A stretch of 64,000 nt of DNA from Trichormus sp. ATA11-4-KO1 (lineage in GTDB: Bacteria; Cyanobacteriota; Cyanobacteriia; Cyanobacteriales; Nostocaceae). A program made the position numbers and the translations under genes. How positions within the stretch are numbered: position 1 is the first letter of the stretch; every line of letters begins with the position of its first letter. The notes under the pieces are model-generated. The model saw only the letters and a program-made list of their open reading frames with translations. It made no database searches and had not been told where the DNA came from. Shown here one piece after another: positions 26,016-51,361 of the stretch. The DNA is taken from positions 41,080 to 105,079 of the forward strand of contig JAHHIM010000013.1 in NCBI GenBank assembly GCA_019358915.1, read 5' to 3'.

Positions 26016-27188
26016 TTAAAATTTGAGGATTTCTCGGTCATAGTTGTCGGGAAGGGGTTCAATTTCCCAGACTATGCCTTCTCCTGCTTCTAAAGCAACT
26101 TCTACATAAAGTTGTTCTACGGCAGTTGTGGCTGTATCTTCATTGTTGGGGAAAGGCTGTAAATCTTCAGTCAGGAGTCTCAGTGTAAAACCACCAGGAA
26201 TGGCTGCGCCCACTGTAGTGTGACGCAACTCAAAGCGCCAATATGGAGCGTCGGGTTCGCCTTGTGGTGTAATTAACAGTTCATATAATTGCCCGGCGAT
26301 CGCTAGTTGGCGTGATAAAGTTACTCCTGGTGGGATTTCTTCTGCACTCCGCGCCCCCGCCGCACTCAACTGCATATTTAATTTTCCCCAGCCTATGGCT
26401 TCTGCCACTTGAGAAACGCCACTTTGCAACCATTGGATCACTGAGCGTTGTTCTGGTAGCCCTATGCGGCGTTCATATAAACTTTGTCGCCAGCCGCCAT
26501 GGGCAATTAATCCTCCCCACAATTGAAAAGGAATAGCTAAACGCGGGGTGATAATTTCTGGATTTCCTAGCCGGGTAATGAGGTTTTGGGCTTGTGCCTG
26601 TGGTAGGGTGGGCAACTGGATAGTAGCGCTACGTGTGACTGCATCTGCACAAAAATCCCGCACCACAGTTAATACACTGATATCAGCAATCATCTCAGTC
26701 GCATCCAAAGTATAAGTGCGATCGCCTGAGTCATAATTGCCTTGATTTTTGAGTTGTTCATGAGTACAGTAACCCCAAACCCTGACATAACCTTCATCAG
26801 GTTCTACTTGGACTGCTAAATAGTAATCACCCGCCCAACTCGATAAATCTACCCATTCTTGAGGTACACGTATTTCACTGGAGTCAATAGTTTCACTAGG
26901 AACCAAAATAAATCTAGTTGCGTCTGCTGTAACTGCGGTTCCGTTCACTAGTTCCCAAAAACTAGATAAAGCTGTAGTATTTGGCCAAACCTGGGCTGGG
27001 GATGTGAAATCCTCTTGCAACCAAGGCAAAACAGCACCTAAACAAAGTTCGTTGAGATAAGCTTGATAACCAGAACTAGGTTGAGAAAAAGATTGACTGT
27101 GAAGACGTGCTTGACGTTCTACAGTAGCAGGAATTTCCAAAATCAGGTCTGTTGAGGCAAAACTTATGATAGGGGTGTTAGCAGTCAT
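26016..27188 (-). CDS. DUF1822-like protein
   Basis: AYLNELCL, WELVNGTA, RVPQEWVD..WAGDYYLAVQV, VWGY motifs; C-terminal beta domain; follows the sigma-like gene. Confidence 0.75.
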   Translation of the reverse strand: MTANTPIISFASTDLILEIPATVERQARLHSQSFSQPSSGYQAYLNELCLGAVLPWLQEDFTSPAQVWPNTTALSSFWELVNGTAVTADATRFILVPSETIDSSEIRVPQEWVDLSSWAGDYYLAVQVEPDEGYVRVWGYCTHEQLKNQGNYDSGDRTYTLDATEMIADISVLTVVRDFCADAVTRSATIQLPTLPQAQAQNLITRLGNPEIITPRLAIPFQLWGGLIAHGGWRQSLYERRIGLPEQRSVIQWLQSGVSQVAEAIGWGKLNMQLSAAGARSAEEIPPGVTLSRQLAIAGQLYELLITPQGEPDAPYWRFELRHTTVGAAIPGGFTLRLLTEDLQPFPNNEDTATTAVEQLYVEVALEAGEGIVWEIEPLPDNYDREILKF

Positions 27189-27273
27189 GGGTAATACTCC
27201 GGGGAACTCTTCAGCTTGTTTTGGATTTACCAGGGATTGCTATTCCCTAGCACAACAGACGCAAAACTTTGTT

Positions 27274-28452
27274 TTAGCATAGGTTAGAGGCGCTGTAATA
27301 GTTGTGCAGCCATTCCTCAATCACAGTACTCATACTTGTTAGTAGGTCTGTTGTCACAGAAATATGCAGGGTATCTTTACTCCAATTAGCTAAAGAACGC
27401 AGCAAAATTTCCTTGGCTTTTGTCAGTCGCCGCGAAACGGTATACTGCTTGATTTCTAGTTGTTTGGCAATTGCATCTTGATTCAACTGCTGACTGTAAT
27501 ATAGTTGCAGAATTTGTTGTACTTGTGGATCTAGTTGGGCGATCGCCGTCGCTAAAACATGTTTAATTTCAGTTTGTTGCGCAGTCCGCGTTGCTGTTTC
27601 TTCTTGGACGATGATTTCCTGGATCAGGGATTCTTGTTGCGTTCCTGGGAGATTATCAAGTAATTCCCATGAATCATCACCACTTTTGGAGACATTTAGC
27701 GAATCTGGGGTGGGATACAGATATTTACGCGCTGCTTTTGCCGCACTTAGTAGCCATTTTTCTAAGTTTGCTGGGTCTTCTGACTGAGTACTTTGTGAAT
27801 TATAAGCTTTAGCGATCGCCTGCCAAATCTCAGGATCTGGTCGAGAAAGTTGGCGGGAGTTACCAGCTTTTACAGGGACATACAGAGTTTTAAAACATCG
27901 CCAAGCTAAAACGTAAGTATTAATTGTCTCTGGGGATAAACCAGCATTTTGCAAAGACTCTTCCAACCGCTTTTGCGATATTTTGCGTAACAGACCCCAA
28001 TCTGTACAAATATCAACTTCTCGACATTGGCGCAAGGTTTCGCGGATAGCACTACCAAAGATCACGCCGGCGTAGCTTTTGAGTGTGCTGCTTTGACTGG
28101 GATTAAAACCTTTCAAAACTCGATCAATTTGGGCGATCGCAATTTGAAAACAGTCTGCAAGTCTGTACTGAGTACTGACAAAGTTAGCAACCGTTTTTTG
28201 GGAAGTCCAATAGCAGGGTTCTTGTAAATAAGCGGCAAGATGTTGCTTGGCTAGTAATTTTGTTTCGGAAATTTGCCAAAACTTATACCAATACAAAACC
28301 CAAAAATACTCAGAACTTTCTTTTGGTGTTTGGTTTAAACAACTTTGAATACTGCGACGCAATCGCGATTCTATCGCCCAACGACTGAAACGGTCTCCGT
28401 CAAATTGCACGAAAGTTGAAAAAATTTCAATGATGCTTTGCCGAGGTTGCAT
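27274..28452 (-). CDS. atypical sigma-70-family / sigma-like factor
   Basis: HLAAYLQEPCYW, FNPSQSSTLKSYA (region 2-like), C-terminal region-4 HTH LNQDAIAKQLEIKQYTVSRRL. Confidence 0.75.
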   Translation of the reverse strand: MQPRQSIIEIFSTFVQFDGDRFSRWAIESRLRRSIQSCLNQTPKESSEYFWVLYWYKFWQISETKLLAKQHLAAYLQEPCYWTSQKTVANFVSTQYRLADCFQIAIAQIDRVLKGFNPSQSSTLKSYAGVIFGSAIRETLRQCREVDICTDWGLLRKISQKRLEESLQNAGLSPETINTYVLAWRCFKTLYVPVKAGNSRQLSRPDPEIWQAIAKAYNSQSTQSEDPANLEKWLLSAAKAARKYLYPTPDSLNVSKSGDDSWELLDNLPGTQQESLIQEIIVQEETATRTAQQTEIKHVLATAIAQLDPQVQQILQLYYSQQLNQDAIAKQLEIKQYTVSRRLTKAKEILLRSLANWSKDTLHISVTTDLLTSMSTVIEEWLHNYYSASNLC

Positions 28453-28496
28453 AAAAAATGGGAAACCGACCTAAAGGAAGAGTGGAGGCGTTGAAC
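28448..28496 (+). promoter_or_regulatory. conserved promoter-like motif copy A (TGCATAAA-N13-ACCTA-N7-AGTGGAGGCGTTGAA)
   Basis: same blocks and spacing as 49116 and 50621. Confidence 0.65.
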
Positions 28497-28577
28497 AATA
28501 CCTGCACAAACTTTACTACAAGGAATGAGGGTCATGTTTCGCCTAGTAATGAAATTTTTAACATTTAATGGAGATTT

Positions 28578-29051
28578 ATGAAAATGTTACAACGTTCTTT
28601 AAGTTTTGCTGCTGCTAGTATTGCCTTAACTGCTAGTTTAGTTAGTCCGGCAATGGCTGCCCCTGGTGATTTTGTGGGAACATGGGTGAATAAAGATGCT
28701 AATACTCGTGGGATTACTCGCTTAGTGATTACATCAGCAGGTGGTAATAAATTAAACATTCAAGTATTTGGTAAATGTCATCCCCAGGATTGTGATTGGG
28801 GTAAAACATCATTAGTTACCTATGGTCTCAATGTCCAAGATACTAATCATAGTTATGCCTCAGCCAACTATAACAAGAGTTTTGCTAATTCTTTCTTAAC
28901 CTTGGGTCATTCTGGTAATCAAATTATGTTGCAAGGCTACACTCAGTTTTTGGATAATAGTAATCGCCAAAATTACTATTCCCGTGATTACTTTCAAAAG
29001 CAAACAAGAGTGAGAGTTCCTGGTAATATTCGGAGATTGCCCAATTTTTAG
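28578..29051 (+). CDS. secreted hypothetical protein, probably beta-rich
   Basis: Sec signal ending PAMA; FVGTWVN, GKCHPQDCDWG; GGAG RBS. Confidence 0.8.
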   Translation: MKMLQRSLSFAAASIALTASLVSPAMAAPGDFVGTWVNKDANTRGITRLVITSAGGNKLNIQVFGKCHPQDCDWGKTSLVTYGLNVQDTNHSYASANYNKSFANSFLTLGHSGNQIMLQGYTQFLDNSNRQNYYSRDYFQKQTRVRVPGNIRRLPNF

Positions 29052-30988
29052 ATTTGTAATAACCCCTCTGGATTTACGGACAAAAGCGATCGCCTCTGTA
29101 ATCCCTCTCGATGTAAAATCTCATTGGCTGCCAATAAGCCACTACTAACTGCCCTTTCCATTAATCCACAAGGGAAGGGCATTTTTACCCAATCTCCAGC
29201 AAATAGTAAATTAGATACATCGGTACTGGTTTCTGGACGTTCGGCATAACTCTTGGGTGGATATCCCGAAAAGTTACGCTGATTGACTAGTTCTCGATGC
29301 AGGATTTTGGCTTGTTTTAACTCAGGCACAATTTCATAAAGTTCCTGTGCAAATGTTGTTAATAAAGCTGCTTGGGTGGGAAATTCTTTTTCTTTATAAC
29401 AATAGGCGTGTAACTCTACAACACTACCACCAGTGCGTTGTGACCAGTCGATGAATTGTTGTTGAATGCGATGATAAAGGGTGATACTATCAGTTAACTG
29501 GTAGCCAGATAAAGAAGTAAAATTACTTTGTTTCCACTCAAAATCCCGGTCAAACCAGAAACGACACACAGCAAAAGGATCGGCAATACTCAACTTTTCG
29601 ACTTGCGATCGCACTTTTTGGTCTACATCTCCACTAACTCGCTTGAATAGTTGTTGCACACCAGGGACATCGGTAGCAAACACATAATAATCGGCTGTGA
29701 TTGTTTGTGGTGATAATGATTCATGATTTACTGCAATCAGTTGCAACTCATCATTTTGTCGTTGCGCTACTTTAAACTTAGGTAAATCTTGTTGAGCCGG
29801 CCCTTTTAAAACTTTACCATCAGCAGTAAACACTGCTCCATGACAAGGGCAATGAAATTTCCCGTCTGCTGCTTGCTTAACAGTACAACCTTGATGAGTA
29901 CAAGTGAGGGAAATAGCTTCTTTACTCCCAGATGGTAAAGCAAATACTTCATCAGCCGCTCCAAAATATTCTATCTTGCCATCAGCAATAACTGAGTTTT
30001 GTTTTACCCAAAAAGGAACATGGTTTTGATTACTGCCAACATAATAATTTAGGGCATCAATCTTACCTGCCACAGCCGGAACTTCACTCACAGTTGCACC
30101 AGTGATTATTTTACCCCCATTACTTTGAATTGCTCTAGCAATAGGTTGCACTAAACTTGTACCCATATCATCTTTAGTGCCATTAAAAGCAAGTCCTTCT
30201 GGATTGCCAAAAAAATAAAAATGAAAGAACTGCATGAGTTCTCCCACACTCATCATATCTGGAGCATTTAAGCTGGATTTAGCAAAGGGCAGAAAATACA
30301 AATCGTATAAACCCTGGGGAAATTCTGTTTTTACCCAGTCAGCCACCGAGATATGATCAAATCGCTGATAGTTTCTTTCTCTTTGAAACCCAGTAATTGC
30401 TTGGAAAACTTGTAAATGCTTGAATTTAGTCAGATTAATTCCCCATTGGAAGCGGTTGGGAGAAGCGATCGCTAAATCTACAATATTCCAAGGAAAAGCC
30501 GAATGACTGGGGCGAAATACCTCTGGTTGGTATTTGGCATCGCGGTAAACTACAGAATAAAAATTTAACGATTGAAAGTTATGATTAATTTCCAGTTCGG
30601 AAACTACACTTTTTAGATTATAATACTGGGGAAAAAATCCATGAAAGCCATGTTCCATCATGAAGTTTTCACCAGCAGCTTCTATTTGCCAACTAGCAAT
30701 TTTGCCACCGAGTTGGGGAGATTTCTCTAAGAGAGTAACTGCAAACCCTCTTTGACTCAATTCATAAGCACAAGCTAAACCTGCTAAACCACCTCCAACT
30801 ACTACAACACTTTTATTTTGATTTAAGATTCGTGGCAAACTCAGGGTATCTTTTTGAAAAACTGTTGGTTTTGGCTTAGTAAACCGGGAGTATCCTGCTC
30901 CTCCGACAATCGCACTAATGCCAAATAATTTTAGTAGTGTACGACGGGAGACAACAGATGATTCCGGTGAATTAAATAGTAAACTCAT
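29048..30988 (-). CDS. FAD-dependent carotenoid desaturase-like enzyme with Rieske insert (CrtU/CruE-like)
   Basis: SRRTLLK twin-Arg, GGGLAGL, EHGFHGFF, CTHQGC...CPCHG Rieske motif, AGDW...MERAV. Confidence 0.75.
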   Translation of the reverse strand: MSLLFNSPESSVVSRRTLLKLFGISAIVGGAGYSRFTKPKPTVFQKDTLSLPRILNQNKSVVVVGGGLAGLACAYELSQRGFAVTLLEKSPQLGGKIASWQIEAAGENFMMEHGFHGFFPQYYNLKSVVSELEINHNFQSLNFYSVVYRDAKYQPEVFRPSHSAFPWNIVDLAIASPNRFQWGINLTKFKHLQVFQAITGFQRERNYQRFDHISVADWVKTEFPQGLYDLYFLPFAKSSLNAPDMMSVGELMQFFHFYFFGNPEGLAFNGTKDDMGTSLVQPIARAIQSNGGKIITGATVSEVPAVAGKIDALNYYVGSNQNHVPFWVKQNSVIADGKIEYFGAADEVFALPSGSKEAISLTCTHQGCTVKQAADGKFHCPCHGAVFTADGKVLKGPAQQDLPKFKVAQRQNDELQLIAVNHESLSPQTITADYYVFATDVPGVQQLFKRVSGDVDQKVRSQVEKLSIADPFAVCRFWFDRDFEWKQSNFTSLSGYQLTDSITLYHRIQQQFIDWSQRTGGSVVELHAYCYKEKEFPTQAALLTTFAQELYEIVPELKQAKILHRELVNQRNFSGYPPKSYAERPETSTDVSNLLFAGDWVKMPFPCGLMERAVSSGLLAANEILHREGLQRRSLLSVNPEGLLQI

Positions 30989-31351
30989 GTTACACAATTA
31001 GATCTTCACGATCAATGACTGGCGTGAAATTAATGACTATCAGCTAATTAAATTTTAAAATTATTTTTGCAGTTTTTTATTGATGCTGAACGAAATTATT
31101 TTTGCAGAATTCAGGCAATTGTCAATACCTGATGATAAATTTTGAGAATAATGCACTTCAACTTTACATAGTCAACGTTTCTATCTAATGGGATGTCAGA
31201 CAGCAAAAATTGAGTAAACAAATTAGAAGATTATTTGATAGTTTAATATATTATTTAATAATTAGCTACCAAGAGTTAAGTAGTTGGTCATGAGCAGAAG
31301 CAGAGGAACAGAGGAGAATATTAATACAATTTCCCCAATGCCCACTCCCCT

Positions 31352-31579
31352 AATGAAGAGTGCTGAGTTAAAAGTGCTGAGTGCTGAGTTAAAAAACCGC
31401 CCACATTCGGCAAGGCTCAGTGACCACAATTCGCGGGGTATCAACCTTCTGACAGTAATCAGATTCCGCCCACACTTCGGCAAGGCTCAGTGACCACAAG
31501 GGACGGGGCTTGTACCGAGTGCGAAAGTCCTTCCTTCTTCTTCTTTTGACTCAGCACTCAGCACTCAGCACTGAGTAAG
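31352..31579. mobile_element. MITE-like element with heptamer inverted ends, copy 2 (two internal repeat units)
   Basis: AATGAAGAGTGCTGAGTT...ACTCAGCACTGAGTAAG; CCGCCCACA(C)TTCGGCAAGGCTCAGTGACCACAA occurs twice. Confidence 0.7.
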
Positions 31580-32003
31580 ATGAATAGGATACAGCCTTGG
31601 GTCTGAACTATACCAGAATTTTCCTGCGCGATCGCCATAACAATCACACTCAAGGGTCAGAGGTTATGGTTCTGGTAAAGTTGCTAGTGGTCTATGACTT
31701 AGTACAGATTTGCGTAAAATCATGGCGAATTGAGGTTGGAAATTTAAACGCAAAGGAGCGCAGAGGTACGCAAAGAATTCGCTACGAATTAATGAAATGT
31801 TGTACTTAGCTGCTGTGGAGTGTTGTTTTGCCATTATTTCATCTATCCTAGGAGTGATGTTCATTGAATTCGCCTCAGATTTTGGCTTTGGTTACGGCTG
31901 AGGATTGCCAGTCAGTTAACCCTTTGGTTTACTAAGAGTTGAGATTTGAAGCTACCACTGGTCAGAGATTTTGATATTCCCCACTCCCTACCCCCAAAAT
32001 TCC

Positions 32004-32777
32004 ATGAAGTATTGGCGTGAAACTATAGCTGTAACTCAGCGTATCTTAATTGAACTGTTGCGCCGTAGACGCAGCCTAATTTTTTGGAGTATTTTTCCCA
32101 TTTCAGTATTAATCCTCAGTGGATTTATTCTAGTAGAACGGGCAGAATTATCACTAGCTGATGCTTTTGGATATGCTGCACCTTCTACTTTGGTAGGTGC
32201 GGCGTTATTTTTTAGCTGTTTGGGTGGTAGTGTGGCTACTGTTGTTGCCGAAAGAGAACAGCAGACCCTGAAACGTTTATTTATTTCACCCTTAAGTGGC
32301 ACTTCCTATTTTTTGGGGATTTTTCTGGCTCATAGTTGCATTGGTATGGGACAGACACTTTTGGTTTATACAATTGCCGCTTTTTGGGGTGCTACTTTTA
32401 AGGGTTCTATTTTATTAGGACTCACGATTATTTTTATGAGTATCGTGGCTTACGTTGGTTTAGGCTTTATTTTGGGTACTCAATTAGCTCGGCGCATCGA
32501 AGATGTCAACGCTTTAGTGGCTGCGTTTGGAGTTCCTTTATTAATTTTAGGAGGGGCATTTTTGCCTGCTTCACTGTTTCCCCAAAACCTAATTAATATT
32601 GCCAAATATAATCCAATTTATCATATGAATGAAGCTTTTGTGGGTGTATCATCCCAAGGTTATGAAATCAGCCAAATCACATCACATTTTTGGTTTTTAC
32701 TAGTGTTTGCATTGGTGATGATTGTAGGTGGCTGGTTATCTTATCAACGAATGCTGATAGTAGAAAGAAGACTTTAA
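32004..32777 (+). CDS. ABC-2 type transporter permease
   Basis: six hydrophobic segments, VAEREQQTLKRL, NPIYH. Confidence 0.9.
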   Translation: MKYWRETIAVTQRILIELLRRRRSLIFWSIFPISVLILSGFILVERAELSLADAFGYAAPSTLVGAALFFSCLGGSVATVVAEREQQTLKRLFISPLSGTSYFLGIFLAHSCIGMGQTLLVYTIAAFWGATFKGSILLGLTIIFMSIVAYVGLGFILGTQLARRIEDVNALVAAFGVPLLILGGAFLPASLFPQNLINIAKYNPIYHMNEAFVGVSSQGYEISQITSHFWFLLVFALVMIVGGWLSYQRMLIVERRL

Positions 32778-32788
32778 AATTTTTCAAT

Positions 32789-33685
32789 ATGCTAAAAATT
32801 CAAAATTTAAATAAATCATACAACACCAGAAAAGTTCTTCAAAATTTGACATTGCATATTGAATCTGGAGAAATTTACGGTTTGCTGGGAGCTAATGGAG
32901 CCGGGAAAACCACAACAATCAATATTATTTGTAATTTACTCAAGGCTGACAGTGGTAAAGTTACAATTAATCATCAACCAGTTTCTGAAGCGACCAAAAA
33001 AATAATTGGTATTGCTCCTCAAGAGAATTTACTCTATAAAACTCTATCTTGTGAGGAGAATTTGCAATTTTTTGCTGATATTTATGGACTAAATCGGGAA
33101 ACACGACAAAAACAAATAAAAGCAACTTTGGCAGCAGTAAATTTATTAGACAGAGCCAAAAGTCCAGTGGAAACCCTCAGTGGTGGGATGAGGCGGCGGT
33201 TAAATATAGCGGTTGCTCTGGTACATCAGCCACAGTTAGTAATTTTAGATGAACCAACTACGGGGTTAGATATTGAAGCACGATATGAAATCTGGGAGTT
33301 GATTCGGCAATTAAAAAATCAGGGGATTACCGTTTTGTTAACAACTCATTTATTAGACGAAGCAGAGCGACTTTGTGATAGAATTGGTATTCTCAAAAAT
33401 GGTCAGGTTCTGGCAGAGGGGAGTTTAGCCGAGTTACGCACTTTGATTCCAGCTTCCGAAATTTTAGTATTACAAACTGCACAAATAGAACAAGCGATCG
33501 CCCGCGCCCAATCATATGGTTTTACGCATAAATATTATGGTAATGAACTAGCTTTTTGGTTACCAGAATCTCTAGAATTAAAAGAAATTATTGCCCGGTT
33601 TGAGGGAATAGAAATTGATGCGATCGCACGTCAGTCCGTGCGCTTAGAGCATATTTATTTGGAAGTAACACAAGCAGGCGCGTAG
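32789..33685 (+). CDS. ABC transporter ATP-binding protein
   Basis: GANGAGKT, LSGGM, LDEPT, TTH. Confidence 0.95.
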   Translation: MLKIQNLNKSYNTRKVLQNLTLHIESGEIYGLLGANGAGKTTTINIICNLLKADSGKVTINHQPVSEATKKIIGIAPQENLLYKTLSCEENLQFFADIYGLNRETRQKQIKATLAAVNLLDRAKSPVETLSGGMRRRLNIAVALVHQPQLVILDEPTTGLDIEARYEIWELIRQLKNQGITVLLTTHLLDEAERLCDRIGILKNGQVLAEGSLAELRTLIPASEILVLQTAQIEQAIARAQSYGFTHKYYGNELAFWLPESLELKEIIARFEGIEIDAIARQSVRLEHIYLEVTQAGA

Positions 33686-33735
33686 CGACTTCCGGGAAGG
33701 AAGACCGCCTGCGCAGGTTAAAAATCTCTTAATGC

Positions 33736-36957: not shown

Positions 36958-37253
36958 ATGCTTCTTTTTAAGGTACAGAAAATGTATCTTTTTTATAAAG
37001 TAGGAGACGCGCTAATTATACATCTGGTGTTAACTTTCTTCTAAGTTCCTGAATATACTTAACTTGATCGCGATTCATCGACTGTTTAAAGTACTGATGG
37101 TAACAAATTAAAAAAGAGTATCAAAACTTGGTGTCTTTGTGCCTTGGTGGTAAAAAAATCCGCATCACTAAGACATAATGACGGTTACTTACATTTATTA
37201 CAGCCCTTACGGGCATCGCTGCGCGTGGGCGAACTTGGCGGTTAAAAAATAAC

Positions 37254-40861: not shown

Positions 40862-41221
40862 AGGAAAATATTTTAACTTTGCGTAGCTCAACTTTATCAG
40901 TCAACTCCCACAGTTTACCTGGGAGCATCCAATTTTGTTCAAACACCAAACACAAAGCTTGCGTTAAACCTTGGCGACCCTCTGCGTGAACCTCTGCGCT
41001 CCTCTGCGTTTAAAAAGATGATCTCACGTAAAGGCAAGCCAGTGCGCCCTGCGGGTTTCCCGACTTGTAGCAACTGGCGCACAAAGACGCAATAAGTTTT
41101 GCTCATTCGGGTTGAGTTTCCTTAAACAAAAAAATAACAGCTTGCTATTCTCAATATTATTTAAATCCACGCGGATTTTACCCAAGATAATATAAAATCA
41201 AGGCTTACAAAAAAAATTATC

Positions 41222-41815
41222 ATGGAAACCCTCACCTTAAACATACCTCCAGCCGTAGGTTTAACCGATGAGCAATTTTATCAACTCTGCATTGCTAACG
41301 AACCTTGGCAATTAGAACTTACTCAGACTGGAGAATTAATTATTATGCCTCCAACAGGCGGAGAAAGCGGAATTAGAAACTCTGATATTAATATAGAACT
41401 TGGTTTATGGAACCGTAAAACCAAATTAGGGAAAGTCTTTGACTCTTCCACCGAGTTCAAATTACCCAGTGGTGCTTATCGCTGTCCTGATGCTGCTTGG
41501 ATAAAGTTAGAACGCTGGGAAGCTTTAACAAAAGATCAAAAACGACGTTTTCCGCCTATTTGTCCTGATTTTGTGATTGAACTGCCCTCAGAAAGCGATC
41601 GTTTAGATAAGTTACGCGCTAAAATGCGGGAATATCAAGAAAATGGTGCGCGTTTAGGTTGGTTAATTGACCCGCAAACTCCTTTAGTAGAAATTTATCG
41701 CCCAGGACAAGATGTAGAAGTTTTGAATTTTTCTTTTGATCACCCTCCTCAACTTTCTGGTGAAGAAGTTTTACCTGGTTTTGTTCTAGATTTGAAGATT
41801 ATCTTAAATCCTTAG
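41222..41815 (+). CDS. Uma2/DUF820 family endonuclease-like protein
   Basis: ELIIMPPTG, PDAAW, CPDFVIEL, LGWLIDP. Confidence 0.9.
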   Translation: METLTLNIPPAVGLTDEQFYQLCIANEPWQLELTQTGELIIMPPTGGESGIRNSDINIELGLWNRKTKLGKVFDSSTEFKLPSGAYRCPDAAWIKLERWEALTKDQKRRFPPICPDFVIELPSESDRLDKLRAKMREYQENGARLGWLIDPQTPLVEIYRPGQDVEVLNFSFDHPPQLSGEEVLPGFVLDLKIILNP

Positions 41816-41930
41816 TAAATAGTTTACAGACAACTCGCCGCATTCTCGGTATTGTCTATGTCGGCTTTCTTCTCACCTGATTTCCACCCTTCCGCAGCCG
41901 ATAAAAATGGTTAAGCCCAAATGGTATAAA

Positions 41931-43211: not shown

Positions 43212-44464
43212 TAAATAGGGGTATCTTGCAACACGGTTTTTGAGACAATCCTGGTTTTCTTGCGATCGCTATCCGATAATTCTCCACCAGATTGGAGTTG
43301 AGTGGCAGAAGTTTGTAACACCGTTGCTGCACCTTGATCTCCCATTTGCAACGCTGTTTTAGCCGCAGTTTGCAGCATTGTCGCTGCACCAGTGCGATCG
43401 CCCTGTTGCAACTTCGCCTCAGCTAACTGAGTTTGGCGATACTTGGCTAATGCCAAAATCGACTGTTGCACACGAGGATTGATCTCTGGTTGGTAAACCC
43501 CAGTGACATTGGCATAAACTGGGATGTTAGCGGTAAATAACCCCAGCTGATTTTGTGCAGGGTCATCATAACGAACTTGTACATTAGCGATCGCTTGTTT
43601 ACCTTCTGGCAACTGTCCCAGATAAATATTAGCTAAAATCACCCGTTCTGCATCTTTCATTAAATCTCCCAAGCGGACAGCAAAGCGTCCATCTGCTTCT
43701 TGCTGTATGGGTAACTCAATTGTGTCTGGGGAAACCTGAGCAATAGGTTTGAGTTCTGCTAGTCGAATGTTAGGCATTAAGGACAATAATAAATAGGCAT
43801 TAGTCAATCCCACCGTTTGCATGCGGTTAAACAGGCGATTAAATTCATCTATTGCCTGGTCTGGTCGTTGAATGTAAGACAAAGTACCCAAACCCGCATC
43901 AGCGATTTTTTCTAAAACATCTTGGTTCCACTTATCGCCAAATCCCAAGGTGTTCAAAGTCAAATTGTAACCAGTAGCCAGTTGAGCAAACTTCAAACAA
44001 CGTTGATTATCACCGTGTTCATTTTCACCATCAGTTAACAAAAAAGCTTGAGAAACAGTTTCTTTTTTCCCCTTTGCTAACTCCTCAATACCCAAACGCA
44101 AACCTTCATCAATTGCTGTACCACCATCGGCAGCTAAACGATTAATTTGCTTTTTGATATGTTCGGGATCTTCAATCAATTGATTCGGTACCAAGACCTT
44201 AGCACGGTGATCAAAAGCGACAACACTCAGGCGATCGCCAGGCTTGAGTTTATCAACTAAATTAGTGGCTGCTTTCTTCACAGTTTCTAAAGGTCGCCCA
44301 TTCATCGAACCACTATGGTCGAGAATTAAGCATAAATTCAGTGGCACATTCCGGTCTTGAACTTCCGCGATCGCGGAAATCGAAATTGCCAACTGACGTT
44401 GACTACTCGGTTGACGCGCGTCCAAATTAGCATCATTGAGGATAGGCTGCAAATTGACCTTCAT
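43211..44464 (-). CDS. VWA-domain protein (paralog 1)
   Basis: LILDHSGSM MIDAS, LLTDG; its stop overlaps the paralog-2 start. Confidence 0.9.
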   Translation of the reverse strand: MKVNLQPILNDANLDARQPSSQRQLAISISAIAEVQDRNVPLNLCLILDHSGSMNGRPLETVKKAATNLVDKLKPGDRLSVVAFDHRAKVLVPNQLIEDPEHIKKQINRLAADGGTAIDEGLRLGIEELAKGKKETVSQAFLLTDGENEHGDNQRCLKFAQLATGYNLTLNTLGFGDKWNQDVLEKIADAGLGTLSYIQRPDQAIDEFNRLFNRMQTVGLTNAYLLLSLMPNIRLAELKPIAQVSPDTIELPIQQEADGRFAVRLGDLMKDAERVILANIYLGQLPEGKQAIANVQVRYDDPAQNQLGLFTANIPVYANVTGVYQPEINPRVQQSILALAKYRQTQLAEAKLQQGDRTGAATMLQTAAKTALQMGDQGAATVLQTSATQLQSGGELSDSDRKKTRIVSKTVLQDTPI

Positions 44465-44718
44465 AACCCAAAATTCCTAGTTCAGGATATATATATAAAT
44501 AACTTCAAAGCGCCAAATCAGCACTACGGAAAAATTAGGGCACAGGTGACAGGCTTCGGCGTGAGCGCTCAGTCGAACGGTGACAGGTGACAGAGAGATT
44601 GCTCTTTTGCTCCTTTGCCCCATTTCCTTGAATTAGCGAGAAATCCACACTTGATGTGAGCTAGCATCGCGCTAGGATGTATTACAGTTAACGGCATACT
44701 TTCAGGCGATCAGTTGCT

Positions 44719-45381
44719 ATGGACATTTCCCCCATCAAGGCTGTTCAAGCCCCATATTACGGTGATAACTTCTACCGGACACCACCGCCAGATTTACCTT
44801 CCTTATTGTTGAAAGAACGAATTGTCTATCTGGGAATGCCACTGGTGCCTGCGGTCACGGAATTAATTATCGCCGAATTGCTGTATTTGCAGTCCGACGA
44901 TCCGGAGAAGCCGATAAAAATCTACATTAACTCTACTGGTACTTCCGGTTATAGTGGCGAACCCATTGGCTTTGAAACCGAAGCCTTCGCCATTTATGAC
45001 ACAATGAAATATATCAAGCCCCCCATTCACACTATTTGTATTGGTTCGGCAATGGGTATGGCAGCAATGCTACTCAGTGCTGGCACAAAAGGTTGCCGCG
45101 CCAGTTTGCCCCACTCTTCTATTATCCTGCACCAGCCTAAGAGCTACGCCCAAGGTCAAGCAACGGATATTCAAATTCGGGCAAAGGAAGTTTTGGTAAA
45201 TAAAGTGTCGATGGTTGATATTTTGTCTTACACCACCGGACAGCCACCAGAAAAAGTTACCAAAGATATGGATCGTCTCTTCTACATGACTCCCTATCAA
45301 GCTCAGGAATACGGTTTGATTGACCGGGTTTTTGAAAAAGAAGAACTGGCCAATCCCCCACTACCAGCGAGTGTGCTTTAG
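44719..45381 (+). CDS. clpR: non-catalytic Clp protease subunit
   Basis: RTPPPDLPSLLLKERIVYLG; catalytic Ser replaced (AMGMAA). Confidence 0.88.
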   Translation: MDISPIKAVQAPYYGDNFYRTPPPDLPSLLLKERIVYLGMPLVPAVTELIIAELLYLQSDDPEKPIKIYINSTGTSGYSGEPIGFETEAFAIYDTMKYIKPPIHTICIGSAMGMAAMLLSAGTKGCRASLPHSSIILHQPKSYAQGQATDIQIRAKEVLVNKVSMVDILSYTTGQPPEKVTKDMDRLFYMTPYQAQEYGLIDRVFEKEELANPPLPASVL

Positions 45382-45511
45382 TGAGTGCTGAGTGCTGTCT
45401 TGGGGTCTCCCCCGCCGCAGGATGCGCGCAGCACTGTAGTGGAGCATCTGGCGTTGCGAGTTAAGAACTTGCTCACAATTCCCCAATTAATTATCAAGTG
45501 GAGTAACGAAA

Positions 45512-46105
45512 ATGCCTATAGGTGTTCCTAAAGTTCCTTACCGGATGCCCGGAGGACAATATACAGATTGGATTAGCATTTATGATCGCCTTTATCGCGA
45601 ACGGATTATTTTCCTGGGGCGAGATGTTGATGATGAAATTGCTAATCAAATTATTGCCGTCATGCTGTATCTGGATTCAGATGATCCGGGTAAGGATATT
45701 TATTTATACATCAATTCCCCCGGTGGTATGGTCACTTCCGGCATGGCGATTTTTGACACCATGCAACACATCAAATCAGATGTAGTCACAATTTGCGTCG
45801 GTTTAGCTGCCTCAATGGGTTCATTTTTGCTGGCAGCTGGCACCAAGGGTAAACGGATGGCATTGCCTCATTCTCGGATTATGATTCACCAGCCTTCTGG
45901 TGGTACCCGTGGGCAAGCAAGCGATATCGAAATTGAAGCCAGAGAAATTCTCCGGATTCGTCACCAGCTCAATGGGATTTATGCTGAAAAGACTGGTCAG
46001 CCTATAGCCAAAATTGAAAAAGACATGGATCGCGACTTCTTCATGTCTGCTGCTGAAGCCAAAGAATACGGTTTAATTGACCGTGTGATTGAAGAACGAC
46101 CCTAG
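45512..46105 (+). CDS. clpP: ATP-dependent Clp protease proteolytic subunit (ClpP3 type)
   Basis: [24 protein letters not shown]. Confidence 0.95.
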
Positions 46106-46294
46106 GAGTAGGGAGTGGGGACAAGGAGAGATTACTAATATTAAGTCCTTCCACCCATCCCCCCATTCCCCATTCCCCATTCCCAAAAACCGTCTAGCGT
46201 GAACGAAAAATTAGCAGATTAGTCTTTATAATTAAAACCTTAAGGCTGGAAGCTAAAAGCTGAAAGCTAAATATTCGATAGCTGATAGATCAAG

Positions 46295-46918
46295 ATGGAT
46301 CTTGGAGATTGCTACCGTTTATTGGGTTTAAGGTCGGGAGCCTCTTTTGCTGATGTCAAAGCGTCTTACAGACGACTGGCGCAGCAATATCATCCCGATA
46401 TCAACCCAAGCGACACCAAAGCTAAAGATAAGTTTATTGCTTTGACAGAGGCTTACAGATTCCTTTTAACGGTAGTACCTTCAGAGGAGATAGCCCAACC
46501 GTCAAGTCAATCTTCTGTATCTGGAAGTGGTGGCATCAACGCCACCCACCCAGAAACAGCACCAACAATCACTGTGACGGATGAAAAACCGCCCACTCAA
46601 AAGCTGCCTAATATTGTAGAAATAGAGCAACGACTGAAGTGGAAAACTTATGAACAACTGCAACGGTTCTTAAAAGAAAGAAGATTTCCCCAAGCGATCG
46701 CTCTGGCGGAAGCTTTAGCGGTACGGTTACCACAAGATGCAGAGGTACGCCAATGGCAGGCGGTTGCTTATCAAATTTGGGGACGGGCGTTAATTGCCGA
46801 ACATCAACTGTTGAAGGCCAGAATTTATCTCAAAAAAGCCCTAAAAACAGACCCTAACAACAAGGCTCTGTGGCTTGAGGTGCAGAGAGATTTCCAACGA
46901 TTGGAGCAGATTTTTTAA
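46295..46918 (+). CDS. J-domain protein with TPR-like C-terminus
   Basis: YHPD motif, helical C-terminus. Confidence 0.88.
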   Translation: MDLGDCYRLLGLRSGASFADVKASYRRLAQQYHPDINPSDTKAKDKFIALTEAYRFLLTVVPSEEIAQPSSQSSVSGSGGINATHPETAPTITVTDEKPPTQKLPNIVEIEQRLKWKTYEQLQRFLKERRFPQAIALAEALAVRLPQDAEVRQWQAVAYQIWGRALIAEHQLLKARIYLKKALKTDPNNKALWLEVQRDFQRLEQIF

Positions 46919-47467
46919 AACTCTTGAGTGCCAGTCAAAATATAACTTTATTTATTAAATAAGACTAAATCTGCCTCTCATCCTTATTGTTGATTATTGA
47001 TAATATTTTTTAATATCAACACAAGGAATTGATGGTTTCTCAAAGCAATTTTAACGTGAATTCAATGAACCTTACCCCAACCCCTCTGGGACACTCAGAG
47101 GGGCAAAAATATCCTGGTTTTCAACGAAGTCAGAGGGAACACGGAAGACGGAAGAAGTGATATTAAATAAGGAAGTTTTGAGGCGGGATGGATACTAAAA
47201 TTAGGTATATTTATTGGTGTTGTCTATTTTCGTGAGGGATTATTACTTAAATGCAGCCTAAAACGGTTAATTTAAAGATGATTTAAAAAATCATAATATT
47301 AATAAATATATGTAAACTTAACTTTTTTGTTACAAAAGAGACTCAGTAAATTATATTTTATCACAGACAATATGTTTATCAGGTTGCTTTCGTAGTAATG
47401 AACCAAATTTGCTATGTAGAGTCTGAAGAACATGAAAGGGTTGCAAAAATAAGTTGAGGATCAGCGC

Positions 47468-48409
47468 ATGAAATTCGGAATTGATATAGGGCATAACTCT
47501 CCTCCAGATACAGGCGCAAGAGGGATAAAAATTGAGGATGTTTTAACCTTAGATGTAGGCAACAGAGTTATGTCTAAGTTAAGAGCTTTGGGGCATGAAG
47601 TAATACCATGTAAACCAGATAGGTCTAGTTCAGTCACGAATTCACTGTTTCAAAGAATCAATACGGCAAATACTAACAGGGTTGAGGTTTTTGTCTCAAT
47701 ACACTTTAATGCTTTTAATGGTCAAGCTAATGGTACGGAAGTATTTGCAGCTAGTGATACTGGCAGAAGAATTGCTCAACCAGTGTTAAATGAAATTGTC
47801 AGATTAGGATTTTTTAATCGTGGGGTTAAGAGTGGTTCCCACTTATACGTCCTGAGAAATACTAATATGCCTGCGATACTTGTAGAATGCTGCTTCATCG
47901 ATTCACCAAGAGATATGAATATTTTTGAATCGGAAGCAACGGCTAATGCGATCGTCAAAGGCTTGACAGGTACAGTTCCTAGCGCTCCTGTGAATCCCGT
48001 TCCCGATGAAGAACTAAATACCGATACCACAGTCATCAGACTGCAAAAAGCCTTAAATCGACTAAAAATAACCGATAGAAATGGTCGTGCTTTGGTAGAA
48101 GATAACATCACAGGGCCATCAACGAACTCTGCCACAGTAAACTTCCAAAATATTGCTGGGATTCAACCAACTGGAGTTGCAGACACAAATACATGGAATG
48201 CGATTAATCTGATTTTAGCCAAACGCATCATCAGACCCAACCATGCTGGAGGCCCAGTTGTGAGATACATACAATACCGTGTCGGGGTTGATGTTGATGG
48301 CGTTTATGGTCCCCAGACAGGGGAGGCAATTAAGAGATACCAAAGGCAAAATGGTTTACTTGCTGATGGAATTGTCGGAGGAATGACCTGGCAAAAATTA
48401 ATTGGTTAG
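47468..48409 (+). CDS. N-acetylmuramoyl-L-alanine amidase with peptidoglycan-binding domains
   Basis: DIGH, E, SIHFN, PAILVE; DGVYGPQT and DGIVG PG-binding repeats. Confidence 0.9.
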   Translation: MKFGIDIGHNSPPDTGARGIKIEDVLTLDVGNRVMSKLRALGHEVIPCKPDRSSSVTNSLFQRINTANTNRVEVFVSIHFNAFNGQANGTEVFAASDTGRRIAQPVLNEIVRLGFFNRGVKSGSHLYVLRNTNMPAILVECCFIDSPRDMNIFESEATANAIVKGLTGTVPSAPVNPVPDEELNTDTTVIRLQKALNRLKITDRNGRALVEDNITGPSTNSATVNFQNIAGIQPTGVADTNTWNAINLILAKRIIRPNHAGGPVVRYIQYRVGVDVDGVYGPQTGEAIKRYQRQNGLLADGIVGGMTWQKLIG

Positions 48410-48414
48410 CTTGA

Positions 48415-48999
48415 CTAGCCACGATTTCGTTCTAGCAGCAGCATCATCATTAAACTTAATAAAACCTGCTGCTCTTCGCGATCGCTGAGTTGATCGACGG
48501 CTTTGATGGTAAACTTCCTAGAGAGAAAAGTCGGAATTTTCTCCAGACGCATCACAACCGTACCATCAGCTCGGCTGACTAAGTAAGTGGGATTAAACAC
48601 ATAACCAGTAAATATGCCCAAAACTGGGATTTCTGCAAATAAGGCATCTGCAATCTTCACCCACGGATTTTTCTCCTGGATGTTTAAGGTGGTTGTGTCG
48701 CCATCAAAGATATCATAGCGGGCACGCCACAGAGATTTTAAACCTCGCCGTTTTACCGAACCAATATAAGCGCCGTTGCTGTCAGTGAAATCATAGCGAG
48801 CCGAAAAGTCAATAATGCGATCAGCTTTGATGTAGTACAGAGGATGGGTGCGTTCAACATCAGCAAAGATTGTAATTGCTTCCTTGAGTTTAAAAAGTTT
48901 CTGTTTTACGTAGAAAGTCAAATTACCTTGAACATCAACAACAGATATTTGCGGAGCTAATGCCCAGAGTTTGAAGGTGAGTTCGAGAGGATACTGCAT
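48415..48999 (-). CDS. LURP-one/scramblase-like hypothetical protein
   Basis: YVKQKLFKLKEAI...IKADRIIDFSARY pattern. Confidence 0.6.
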   Translation of the reverse strand: MQYPLELTFKLWALAPQISVVDVQGNLTFYVKQKLFKLKEAITIFADVERTHPLYYIKADRIIDFSARYDFTDSNGAYIGSVKRRGLKSLWRARYDIFDGDTTTLNIQEKNPWVKIADALFAEIPVLGIFTGYVFNPTYLVSRADGTVVMRLEKIPTFLSRKFTIKAVDQLSDREEQQVLLSLMMMLLLERNRG

Positions 49000-49115
49000 A
49001 GCACGATGAATATATATAATTTCTCACCTTATTAATCCCAGTTGTAAAAACTAAATAACGTCAGCCTAGAAATTTAACGTGAGTCTCCAACGGAGGCGAA
49101 GTTGCGGGAAGGAAG

Positions 49116-49169
49116 TGCATAAACCACAAAAGGTCAACCTATTGAGTAAGTGAAGGGGTTGAAACCCAA
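49116..49169 (+). promoter_or_regulatory. conserved promoter-like motif copy B
   Basis: TGCATAAA-ccacaaaaggtca-ACCTA-ttgagta-AGTGAAGGGGTTGAAACCCAA. Confidence 0.7.
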
Positions 49170-49199
49170 GATACATACCAACACTGAAACTTTAGGAGC

Positions 49200-49859
49200 A
49201 TGACCATGAAATTCCGTCACTTAACTAGTTCTTTGCTAACAGCTACCGCACTTTTGACCTCCTCTCTCCCAGCTTTCGCAGGGCCGTTTGATGTTCAACC
49301 TGCTGGTATATTCAAACCTGCTACAGTTATCCCCGGAGCCGTTATTGGTAATGGAACCCCCAAAACTCCTGCTCACGCACCCAGCAACCCAGTAGGTAAT
49401 AGTGAAATTCAAGGATTAGGTGACCATCAATCTTGGGTTGACCAACAAACTCTAGCAAAAGACCCCCGCGCCTTGTGTAGTGATATTGGTTTAGGCAACA
49501 ACACTCGCAACAGTGCTAGCAAAGTTGCTCTAGCAACCTCTGTCAGCACTCGTTCTAGTTCTGCAAGTAATCACAAAAATGGTGGTGGCGGTGGTGTGAG
49601 CATCCTCGGTATTGGTGTCAGTGGTAGCGGTTCCAGCCAAGGTAGCAAAAACGAAAGTAATTCCCGCGACCAACGGATCAACCGCAACGAAGAAGAAAGC
49701 AGCAGCTCCTCCACAGTAGTCCAAGGCAAGAATTGCGATGCTTTTGTTAACTCTGCTGCTGCTAGAGACATGAACTACCAAGACAACCTCACTCGCCGCT
49801 ATGAAATTAAAACTGGTCGTCGAGGACAACAGGTCAACCAACTGCTGGAAAATCCGTAA
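49200..49859 (+). CDS. secreted Ser/Gly-rich hypothetical protein
   Basis: AGGAG RBS; signal peptide ending PAFA; two Cys flank a Ser-rich segment. Confidence 0.8.
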   Translation: MTMKFRHLTSSLLTATALLTSSLPAFAGPFDVQPAGIFKPATVIPGAVIGNGTPKTPAHAPSNPVGNSEIQGLGDHQSWVDQQTLAKDPRALCSDIGLGNNTRNSASKVALATSVSTRSSSASNHKNGGGGGVSILGIGVSGSGSSQGSKNESNSRDQRINRNEEESSSSSTVVQGKNCDAFVNSAAARDMNYQDNLTRRYEIKTGRRGQQVNQLLENP

Positions 49860-50019
49860 TATATGGGGGTAAAGGGTACGCGGTCGGTTGTCTCCAATTA
49901 CCAATTCTTAATTGCTATGTGGACTTTGAGTCTAAATTGGTTAATTTTTAATTTTTAATTGTGGAAACGCCGGGGGGTAAATACCCTGGCAATTGCTTTA
50001 TTTATCCTCAGGAGAAACT

Positions 50020-50457
50020 ATGAAAAGCAGGCTAGGTAGAGGAATTATTATTCTTAGTACCACCTTGTTACTATCTGTAACATCTGTGGTAAATGCCCAA
50101 ACACCATCTCGGAGAATTCGGGACTCTCAAATTCTACCGTATTTATTGGATAATCCTAATCAAAACTCATGGGTGAGAGTGCGTTGCGTTCCCAGTCATG
50201 GGCAGAAATTAGACTACAAGCGAGGTATTATCAGAGATAGACTCTTGCGCCCAAATGTTAGCGATCGCAATGGTACTGTCACCATAGAAATAGAAGGCAG
50301 TTGTCGGGATGTGAGAATTCGCGCGCAAGACGGCTCAGACTTTTTAGATTACCCCATCTACAATCCCTACATAGATGGCAATCATCACGATTTTGGCGAT
50401 TCCTGGCTGACTCGTCCAGGCTCTGGGTGGTATTGGCTACTGCAACGTCAACGATGA
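50020..50457 (+). CDS. secreted hypothetical protein
   Basis: AGGAG RBS; signal peptide ending VVNA; two Cys; Trp/Tyr-rich tail. Confidence 0.75.
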   Translation: MKSRLGRGIIILSTTLLLSVTSVVNAQTPSRRIRDSQILPYLLDNPNQNSWVRVRCVPSHGQKLDYKRGIIRDRLLRPNVSDRNGTVTIEIEGSCRDVRIRAQDGSDFLDYPIYNPYIDGNHHDFGDSWLTRPGSGWYWLLQRQR

Positions 50458-50492
50458 GGTTATGAAAAATTGGCACATGGGGACAATGAATC

Positions 50493-50530
50493 AATTCAAA
50501 ATTCAAAATTCAAAATTCAAAACTCAAAAT
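50493..50530. repeat. heptamer tandem repeat (AATTCAA)n, STRR-type
   Basis: about five consecutive units. Confidence 0.85.
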
Positions 50531-50620
50531 AAATTCTGAAATTTACCCTTTGGGTAAATTTTGAAATTCAACCTTGATTTTTCTGCTCAGGACTCAGGAC
50601 TCAGCACTTTGACAACAGAC

Positions 50621-50674
50621 TGCATAAACTCAAAATAACTAACCTATTGATTGAGTGAAGGGGTTCAAGCCCAA
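50621..50674 (+). promoter_or_regulatory. conserved promoter-like motif copy C
   Basis: TGCATAAA-ctcaaaataacta-ACCTA-ttgattg-AGTGAAGGGGTTCAAGCCCAA. Confidence 0.7.
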
Positions 50675-50707
50675 AACAAACTACTGAAATCACAGGGAAA
50701 AACGATT

Positions 50708-51361
50708 ATGAAAATGCAAATATTATTGAGTCTTGCTTGTTCTATTTCTTGCTTGGGTTCTGTTACACTGCCAGCTAACGCTCAACCTGTTCCTACTGAG
50801 CCTACTGTGCAACCTCAGTCCCCAAGCTTCAGCGAAGAAATTACCGTCCCTCAAGATACAGCGATTATCGTTTCTTTTCCTGCACCTGTTACCATAGATG
50901 TTGGACAAAAAAAGGATTATCCCTTGACGGTTCCTTTAGCTAATGCTATCCAAGATGCTCAAGGCAATACCATAGCATCTGAAAATACTCCGGTAACTAT
51001 TGTTCTCCAGCCCACAGATGGTGGCGCTAAAATTGTCGCCCAATCTTTAGTAATCAATGGTCGCATTGTCTCAATTAAAGCATCAAGTCAAACAATTCCC
51101 GGCACTACTATTACTCACAAACGAGCTAACGACAAAGCTGTTGAAAATGGTTCAATTTGGGGCAGAATTGGTGGCAGTACCTTGGGCTTTTTAAACCAAG
51201 GTGATCCAGATCAATTTGACCGAGGCGCTATGTTGGGGAGTGCTGTAGGATTAATCTCAGGCTTACGTTCTGCTGAAAATACCCGTGTTGTGCAGATTCC
51301 CCAAAGCAGTGTGTATGTTTTGTCCCTTGAAGCACCTATCAGTTTGTCTGCTCGCCGCTAG
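50708..51361 (+). CDS. secreted protein, TrbI/VirB10-like beta domain with glycine-rich helical hairpin
   Basis: signal peptide ending PANA; VPQDTAIIV...IQDAQGNTIASENTPV...GGAKIVAQSLVING; GRIGGSTLG...GAMLGSAVG. Confidence 0.6.
   Translation: MKMQILLSLACSISCLGSVTLPANAQPVPTEPTVQPQSPSFSEEITVPQDTAIIVSFPAPVTIDVGQKKDYPLTVPLANAIQDAQGNTIASENTPVTIVLQPTDGGAKIVAQSLVINGRIVSIKASSQTIPGTTITHKRANDKAVENGSIWGRIGGSTLGFLNQGDPDQFDRGAMLGSAVGLISGLRSAENTRVVQIPQSSVYVLSLEAPISLSARR

Follow-up and report, generated by a model that had tools for sequence, protein, structure and literature searches.

Sigma factors paired with DUF1822 proteins have been catalogued before. Kaur et al. (2021, eLife, PMC8195603) devote one paragraph to EACC2-caspase neighbourhoods with an extracytoplasmic function (ECF) sigma and DUF1822; the parts of that paper considered here call DUF1822 a tetratricopeptide repeat protein and give no promoter, regulon or anti-sigma role. 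The same gene pair is present in the 64,000-nucleotide stretch of Trichormus sp. ATA11-4-KO1 analysed here (GCA_019358915.1, contig JAHHIM010000013.1, positions 41,080 to 105,079 of the forward strand; hereafter the window), where no protease gene stands beside the pair and the candidates lie on other contigs. A two-box motif, TGCATA-N15-ACnTA, lies upstream of genes for exported-looking proteins in this window and also inside the sigma gene. We propose, with a probability of about 0.8, that the sigma factor encoded at 27274-28452 uses this motif as its -35/-10 promoter and has the DUF1822 protein as its cytoplasmic anti-sigma. The support is computational throughout and consists of the motif, its conservation, its placement, the protein folds and a model of the complex.

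In the sections of Hu et al. (2026, PNAS, PMC13342950) cited here, the HetZ-PatU3 pair of Anabaena PCC 7120 is alike in several respects: the sigma has about 400 amino acids with insertions and activates its own downstream anti-sigma gene, the inhibitor contacts sigma4 and the insertions, and the promoter has a hexameric -35 box T.C..A and a -10 box ending in T-A. The two systems differ in the motif (TGCATA/ACnTA here, TCCGGA/TGnA for the HetZ DIF1 promoter), in the partner (DUF1822, not PatU; the DUF1822 profile does not match the open reading frame (ORF) downstream of hetZ) and in the size of the regulon (a few exported proteins predicted here, about 546 sites for HetZ; PMC13342950). The protease-released sigmas of type III CRISPR (clustered regularly interspaced short palindromic repeats) systems, namely Csx29/Csx30/CASP-sigma, CalpL/CalpT/CalpS and SAVED-CHAT/PCaspase/PCc-sigma in the part of bioRxiv 10.1101/2023.06.23.546230 used here, share the proposed logic of a caspase-family protease cutting the partner that holds the sigma; unlike them, the present locus shows no CRISPR context, and DUF1822 cleavage is here a proposal.

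The system proposed here is in kind a sigma/anti-sigma regulon, small in this genome, and hence not categorically new. The first-pass annotation of this DNA, made by a model from the letters, had presented the regulon and its promoter as undescribed. This stands in so far as no description of a promoter, internal feedback site or regulon for the sigma/DUF1822 pair was found in the open-access literature (closed journals and bioRxiv supplements being outside this scope), and it does not stand for the pairing itself, which PMC8195603 already lists in the paragraph cited above. The module was found in 89 of 301 genomes of the order and is present in the model strain PCC 7120.

The probable promoter motif in this genome and its relatives

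The genes and sites on which the argument rests are the following.

26016..27188, minus strand: DUF1822 protein, 390 amino acids, predicted cytoplasmic anti-sigma (PF08852, E 1e-125)
27274..28452, minus strand: atypical sigma70-fold factor, 392 amino acids, orthologue of PCC 7120 all3581
27343..27368, minus strand: site D, internal TGCATA-N15-ACCTA facing DUF1822, predicted +1 at about 27333
28448..28473, plus strand: site A, TGCATA-N15-ACCTA, -35 box overlapping the sigma start codon, predicted +1 at about 28483
28578..29051, plus strand: gene A, 157-amino-acid signal-peptide protein of no known family (weak avidin-like lead, score 0.84)
49116..49163, plus strand: site B, TGCATA-N15-ACCTA plus AGTGAAGGGGTTGAA, predicted +1 at about 49151
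49200..49859, plus strand: gene B, 219-amino-acid signal-peptide protein with a Ser/Gly-rich core, no family
50020..50457, plus strand: gene B2, 145-amino-acid signal-peptide protein, no motif of its own
50621..50668, plus strand: site C, TGCATA-N15-ACCTA plus AGTGAAGGGGTTCAA, predicted +1 at about 50656
50708..51361, plus strand: gene C, 217-amino-acid signal-peptide protein, no family

The annotation had reported three intergenic sites of identical spacing, roughly 85-130 bp upstream of genes with a signal peptide, and both statements were borne out. The plus strand has perfect matches to the pattern TGCATAAA-N13-ACCTA-N7-AGTG at 28448, 49116 and 50621, and raising the tolerance to 3 mismatches gave no further match in the window. 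Shuffled sequence gave a mean of 0.32 matches, and three were reached by one shuffle in 100. The distances to the ATG are 130 nt (gene at 28578), 84 nt (49200) and 87 nt (50708), and the three proteins pass a simple signal-peptide rule (basic N-terminus, hydrophobic core and A-x-A motif), as does B2; none of A, B, B2 and C belongs to a Pfam family. In the whole 5.97-Mb assembly the full pattern matches only these three sites, and the same holds for AGTGRAGGSGTTSAA or the third block alone. As the pattern was derived from those very sites, this in-genome count is post hoc, and independent support has to come from other genomes.

The reading of the site as a -35 box, an ACCTA -10 box and an AGTG +1 region was kept in part. 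The two-box motif holds, with the -10 box amended to ACnTA, which makes TGCATA-N15-ACnTA the conserved core. Outside this core stands the third block (AGTG...GTT.AA): it is loosely kept, at 38-84% per position from -2 to +13 over 100 sites, and is absent from the internal copy, site D. The first site had also been placed next to the divergent sigma gene; the divergence is correct, whereas the TGCAT of site A overlaps the sigma start codon, being the reverse complement of that codon plus two bases (ATG CA, 28452-28448). Among 94 other homologous loci, the core of site A is exact in 48 and has one mismatch in 7 more; TGCATA stands without a -10 box in 22 and is itself missing in 17.

The scan of this genome and its relatives that the annotation had suggested gave a clear enrichment in genomes that carry the sigma gene. 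Orthologues of gene B occur in 10 of 61 related genomes, our own included, and the core lies 75-94 nt upstream in all 10; a further core-bearing locus (L096) has B within 6 kb of the sigma gene. Close orthologues of gene C were found in 11 genomes, with the motif upstream in 10. At these orthologous sites the spacer and flanks vary with the spacing fixed, and every genome with B or C orthologues carries the sigma gene. The pattern TGCATAA-N14-ACNTA-N6-8-AGT gave 50 matches in the 61 genomes compared with 4 for the reversed control, in 25/45 sigma-positive and 1/16 sigma-negative genomes, with C at the free position in 41 of the 50. A stricter pattern in 301 genomes of the order, with at most 6 candidates scored per genome, gave 43 matches compared with 2 for the control, in 22/89 genomes with a close sigma homologue and 4/212 without.

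Outside the orthologous loci, several families have the motif in front of unrelated signal-peptide genes, at a distance of about 57-115 nt. The first scan and its fetched regions gave 25 new external sites, at 12 of which the first ORF looked like a signal-peptide gene (322 of the 4967 ORFs of this genome pass the same rule); 10 failed the rule and 3 had no ORF. Of the ten failures, some look exported by eye and others plainly belong to different kinds of gene, such as kdpA-like ORFs. With a looser rule, 17 of the 24 sites of the second scan passed, one failed and 6 had no ORF within reach. In another family, one locus (L188, genome G037) has four tandem copies of the motif, each before a short exported-type ORF, with a transposase-like ORF interrupting the series. 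Judged from these comparisons of sequence, the TGCATA-N15-ACnTA motif is under selection.

A matrix trained on the other genomes and scanned over this one ranked sites A and B as the top two, site D third and site C fifth; rank 4 is a site with a 16-nt spacer within an ORF on contig C65. Because of this ranking, the predicted regulon of this genome is small, with four promoters.

Several loci of other genomes show the motif in further settings. At L154, L169 and L278, from two families, it is followed by a non-coding stretch that is likewise conserved (GGTCCCGTGTAGAGA...), with kdpA-like genes 450-800 nt further downstream; this stretch is a possible regulated leader. At L191, L187, L199, L103 and L107 it is followed, in the same direction, by a short signal-peptide ORF and a radical-SAM-type gene, to which some of these loci add a caspase-STAND-WD40 gene in the same direction. 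These radical-SAM loci are possible peptide-modification operons with the protease itself in the regulon. The motif before caspase genes is inconsistent (4/9 among the loci listed, two with ACCCA).

A related sequence, TGCATA-N16-ACGTAAT, lies about 120-135 nt upstream of genes for HetZ-related protein 2, in this genome (L153:1489-2685, contig C55) and at L260-L264, L298, L300, L302 and L303. The C55 site was considered as a further target in this genome and rejected, as it persists in genomes without the sigma.

Internal site D, the sigma protein and DUF1822

Site D, which the annotation had overlooked, sits at 27368-27343 within the 3' end of the sigma gene, 180 nt before the DUF1822 start, and is written in codons L362-H363-I364...D369-L370. 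The final TG of codon 362 is present in 96/96 distinct sigma genes, His363 is CAT in 96/96 (background 0.64), Ile364 is ATT in 91/93 (background 0.50), Asp369 is GAC in 87/90 (background 0.29), and position 370 ends in TA in 96/96 though the residue is Leu, Ile or Val. Only 4 of the 119 conserved degenerate columns of the sigma genes are equally fixed, and three of these are in site D. Internal TGCATA was present in 121/135 sigma homologues. Because synonymous positions are fixed in 96 homologous coding sequences, the fixation of site D is, at the level of codon comparison, a constraint on the DNA and not on the protein. Beyond site D, strong synonymous fixation occurs once, at Asp147, which is GAT in 95/96 homologues (about 28012-28014 in the window).

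A second element was found close to the predicted site D start.

27323..27328, minus strand: TACTGT, SigA-type -10 hexamer, 17 nt downstream of the predicted site D start

This hexamer is the probable -10 box of a second, housekeeping promoter for DUF1822, and its offset is the one seen at the mapped start gTSS_4326110r of PCC 7120. A TAnnnT box occurs at that offset in 57/135 internal sites compared with 1/115 external sites.

The sigma protein consists of an N-terminal extension (1-45), sigma2 (about 48-145), an insertion (about 150-280), sigma4 (about 291-359) and a C-terminal helix (368-389). Pfam sees only region 4, with PF04545 (Sigma70_r4) above its cut-off; sigma2 is also matched weakly by sequence, and TIGR02937 gave 105 bits (cut-off 42.9). 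The model built from an alignment reached a predicted local distance difference test (pLDDT) of 80 and a predicted template modelling score of 0.44, compared with a pLDDT of 47 for the single-sequence model. Its sigma2 superposes on domain 2 of RpoS, SigA, pro-sigmaK and SigE with Z 9.3-10.6 and a root-mean-square deviation (rmsd) of 1.7-3.0 A over 80-100 residues, and its sigma4 on 2h27 with Z 8.9 and an rmsd of 1.3 A over 69 residues. Among the 49 Foldseek matches listed, all were sigma70 chains or complexes. According to the model, the protein has the sigma2 and sigma4 folds, and its sigma function is predicted.

ECF (group 4) sigmas have no domains other than sigma2 and sigma4, with a short linker between the two; a neighbouring gene encodes an anti-sigma that masks these domains, and their operons typically carry their own target promoter upstream, giving positive autoregulation. 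Here about 145 residues, including a folded helical insertion, separate sigma2 and sigma4, so that the short linker of this group is absent. No copy of the motif stands in front of the sigma gene and reads in its direction, as site A points away and site D starts inside the gene toward DUF1822; ECF-type positive autoregulation is therefore not seen.

In PCC 7120, all3581 shares a 90% cluster with the orthologues at L054 and L046, and alr7311 is a paralogue at 49% identity. The rows of PMC11119718 used here list alr7311, alr1376 and all3581 as unclassified, in a region-4-only class named 'SigJ.1', whereas the present model shows a full sigma2 as well. The protein is also not the hormogonium SigJ, whose box is GGGaAtacT in the part of PMC6495340 cited. 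An identity with HetZ was considered and rejected, since NF037963 finds three other places in this genome and not the sigma gene. Among the matches listed (25/54 families), none of the HetZ models NF037963/4/5 matched the sigma protein; a profile comparison by hhalign gave a 10% probability with a shallow HetZ alignment of 3 sequences, and a search of the PDB by sequence found no HetZ structure.

The protein and its promoter boxes vary together among paralogues. Residue 337, in the sigma4 recognition helix, tracks the internal -35 box across 135 homologues: Tyr337 goes with TGCATA in 121/123, Pro337 or Val337 with (T/A)GAATA in 10/10, and Phe337 with TGCATG in 2/2. By way of the FliA alignment, this residue corresponds to E585 of E. 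coli sigma70, which we take to contact base -33, the base that changes among the box variants. Non-coding sites near paralogues copy the local internal variant, namely ACGTG at L220 and L222, TCGTA at L218, L219 and L223, and TGAATA..ACCAA twice in L237, the paralogue's own variant there; the exceptions are L221 and L225, with TCGTA outside and ACGTA inside.

A DUF1822-cluster ORF lies near the sigma gene in 75/80 loci. The model of the sigma-DUF1822 complex scored 0.83, compared with 0.00 for the best of 3 controls; the score mark is reached by 116/157 solved and 2/215 mismatched pairs, rates that are rough here as our own alignments were used. The runs agree in at least 94% of contacts, with a partner pLDDT of at least 85. 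In the model, DUF1822 contacts the sigma through residues 8-214, which lie over the recognition helix in sigma4, the end of sigma2, the insertion and the helix at the C-terminus, and the interface includes sigma residues 335-337, 340-341, 343-345 and 347-348. The model supports DUF1822 as an anti-sigma placed over the -35 recognition helix, with binding and inhibition predicted. No similar complex was found by sequence search, and the DUF1822 profile gave no PDB match below E 1 among solved chains.

Arg280 of DUF1822, in the motif G-A-R-S, is R in 83 of 87 homologues, K in 3 and S in 1; it falls within a variable stretch that precedes the C-terminal part and is outside the modelled interface. 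Caspase or CHAT genes are near 30/37 paralogous and 12/80 orthologous loci, and other contigs of this genome carry a CHAT gene and two genes of the caspase-STAND-WD40 type, whose SGHG and DACH motifs are intact. In the passages of bioRxiv 10.1101/2023.06.23.546230 and PMC6426788 cited here, non-animal caspase homologues cut after basic residues.

A second module of this genome (L204:2743-6881, contig C73) has a short DUF1822-like protein, a CHAT membrane protein and a 264-amino-acid ORF, without an adjacent sigma. It sits behind a two-component pair, and A-F-R-S is conserved at the matching place.

The proposed switch and its alternatives

In the switch that we propose, DUF1822, made from its housekeeping promoter, would at rest hold the sigma by the recognition helix and the insertion. 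On a signal, the freed sigma would transcribe A, B-B2 and C, which encode small exported proteins, and also DUF1822 from site D within its own gene, closing a negative feedback loop. Polymerase on site A would cover the sigma start region and may, speculatively, damp the sigma further. The release trigger would most likely be proteolysis of DUF1822 at Arg280. A cut there by a caspase-STAND-WD40 or CHAT-type protease, to which we give slightly less than even odds, is the preferred trigger because Arg280 is conserved, caspase/CHAT genes lie nearby and homologues cut after basic residues. Wider and more tentative, in our estimate a little less probable again, is the suggestion that cyanobacteria carry a family of caspase-gated sigma switches, in which receptors of the caspase-STAND-WD40 or CHAT type would cut DUF1822 at the conserved arginine to release a large sigma with an insertion, each paralogue reads its own promoter variant, copied in its own last codons, and the output is lineage-specific small exported proteins, possibly for defence or competition.

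The proposals of the annotation on the two proteins thus gain computational support: that the sigma-like protein reads the motif, from co-occurrence, the sigma2/sigma4 folds and box variants that follow the paralogues; that DUF1822 regulates it, from the complex model over the -35 recognition helix. Its view of the output as a set of exported proteins is likewise supported, with the amendment that the DUF1822 gene would itself join the regulon through site D.

Published data from PCC 7120 bear on the switch. In the part of PMC3141674 cited, all3581 is barely expressed (1.6-2.8 reads per kilobase per million mapped reads), and all3580 is higher, with an about 3-fold rise after nitrogen step-down, which fits a switch in the off state. 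For the transcript starts we used supplement rows of PMC10287535 and PMC11119718. In these rows the start gTSS_4326110r for all3580 falls inside all3581, as an internal promoter would require. The gene alr3582 did not appear in two PCC 7120 tables. As TACATT stands at -12 to -7 of gTSS_4326110r in close orthologues, and TACTGT in the window, this start reads as a probable SigA-type promoter in tandem with the motif. In the promoter tables of N. punctiforme and Fischerella, TGCATA occurs 17 and 11 times, never as TGCATA-N15-ACnTA.

Several points weigh against our proposal. The start gTSS_4326110r is 17 nt downstream of the motif-predicted 4326127; counted from the first T of TGCATA it lies at 52 nt, where about 35 nt was predicted. 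It belongs to a TAnnnT box (read from the DNA of close orthologues, not of PCC 7120), and the published start rows used here confirm no sigma-specific start at the predicted distance from the motif. The scanned genomes are related and hence not independent, some matches are the sigma gene's own start (site A), the strict pattern is absent from 67/89 sigma-positive genomes, and genome G325 has a convincing site with only distant sigma homologues. TGCATA-N16-ACGTA lies upstream of the HetZ-related-2 gene in 6/6 sigma-positive genomes and also in 4/9 sigma-negative ones. As to the paralogues, the switch from Tyr to Pro at residue 337 was probably one or two events, and TGAATA..ACCAA is not enriched genome-wide with P-type sigmas (14 compared with 6 for controls, in 1/9 genomes). 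As to the protease, no caspase or CHAT gene stands beside the pair among the 54 window proteins scanned, and the Arg280 cleavage site is purely an argument from conservation.

The motif could be a real promoter read by another sigma, such as HetZ-related protein 2 or a classical group 3/4 sigma, with the sigma/DUF1822 pair as a target. Because the HetZ-related-2 site persists without this sigma, another factor would read a near-identical sequence, and the N16 site is a candidate promoter for another sigma, possibly HetZ-related-2 itself; in addition, 4 of 26 motif-positive genomes have no close sigma homologue. This site, however, differs in its downstream context and in its spacer of 16 nt, and HetZ-related-2 is present in 14/15 genomes searched, including sigma-negative ones without ACCTA sites. 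The strong co-occurrence of the motif with the present sigma (22/89 compared with 4/212), and variants of both boxes that follow the local paralogue and its sigma4 residue, make a reading by another sigma unlikely. Less likely again is that the protein is a DNA-binding activator or repressor whose operator, the motif, would stand in front of ordinary SigA promoters. The single start mapped at such a site, 52 nt from TGCATA with a TAnnnT -10 box, would suit an operator, as would a protein of twice the ECF size in which Pfam sees only region 4. Such a box at that offset is found, however, at only one of 115 external sites, the model holds a complete sigma2 domain, and the motif is non-palindromic and bipartite, with a -35/-10-like spacing comparable to the HetZ promoters given in the cited part of PMC13342950.

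Very improbable is a third explanation, in which the sites would be the termini of a dispersed repeat or would arise by chance from coding constraint (ATG-CA for A, L-H-I...D-L for D), B and C having come from a single duplicated 5' region. The TGCAT of A is indeed forced by Met-Gln/His, TGCATA is kept without a -10 box in the 22 of 94 homologues mentioned above, and B and C share extra bases past the core. The flanks and spacers of A-D nevertheless do not align, exact copies number only three genome-wide, and no Rfam match was found in 25900-51500, so the dispersed-repeat alternative named by the annotation finds no support. This explanation is largely refuted by the footprints in orthologues, the synonymous fixation of site D and the recurrence of the motif before non-homologous genes in other families.

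A consensus for the promoter, together with a feedback site and a list of named targets, makes the sigma/DUF1822 module testable at the bench, as DIF1 did for HetZ, and the internal site is a built-in readout of the promoter specificity of each paralogue. If true, the protease link addresses what cyanobacterial caspase homologues cut, and a caspase-gated family would give these homologues a natural substrate and a non-death signalling role, together with a set of orthogonal promoters predictable from sequence.

Downstream genes and further observations

Two further features lie between site A and gene A.

28481..28520, plus strand: predicted 5' leader of A, AGTGGAGGCGTTGAA (possible weak 5' stem-loop) followed by the conserved ACTTTACTACA block
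28534..28581, plus strand: 15-codon remnant (MFRLVM...), its stop overlapping the gene A ATG

The ACTTTACTACA block (28510-28520) is present in 55/68 loci having site A compared with 4/28 loci without it. On the minus strand it reads TGTAGTAAAGT; the block could contain a -10 box that belongs to the sigma gene itself and faces site A, or could be an element of the A leader. In single folds the hairpin of the third block has a median z of -1.9 over 100 sites against mononucleotide shuffles, with -1.2 to -1.6 for our own sites and -1.6 at A; RNAalifold found no pairs in a consensus structure of 24 A-type leaders. As seen from homologous loci, the remnant derives from a secreted gene of 262-266 amino acids that is first in the operon in relatives. 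In 26/80 loci the sigma gene has a homologue of gene A no more than 10 kb away.

Gene B2 follows B without a motif in all loci examined, and from this arrangement it is probably co-transcribed with B. Gene B shows a weak aerolysin-type feature likeness (0.79), which is a lead only. Just 5' of site C, at 50495-50525 and 50588-50605, there are heptamer tandem repeats of the AAATTCA and CAGGACT types.

At L032, L034, L042 and L085, the DUF1822 operon is followed by arrays of near-identical ORFs of 76-87 amino acids whose N-termini are leader-like, and a similar array occurs elsewhere in this genome (contig C10, 15741-18070). These arrays look like peptide precursors, without a family match. Finally, genes for a non-specific endonuclease and a NuiA inhibitor, convergent and of the nucA/nuiA type, lie at 53063-54589 of the window.

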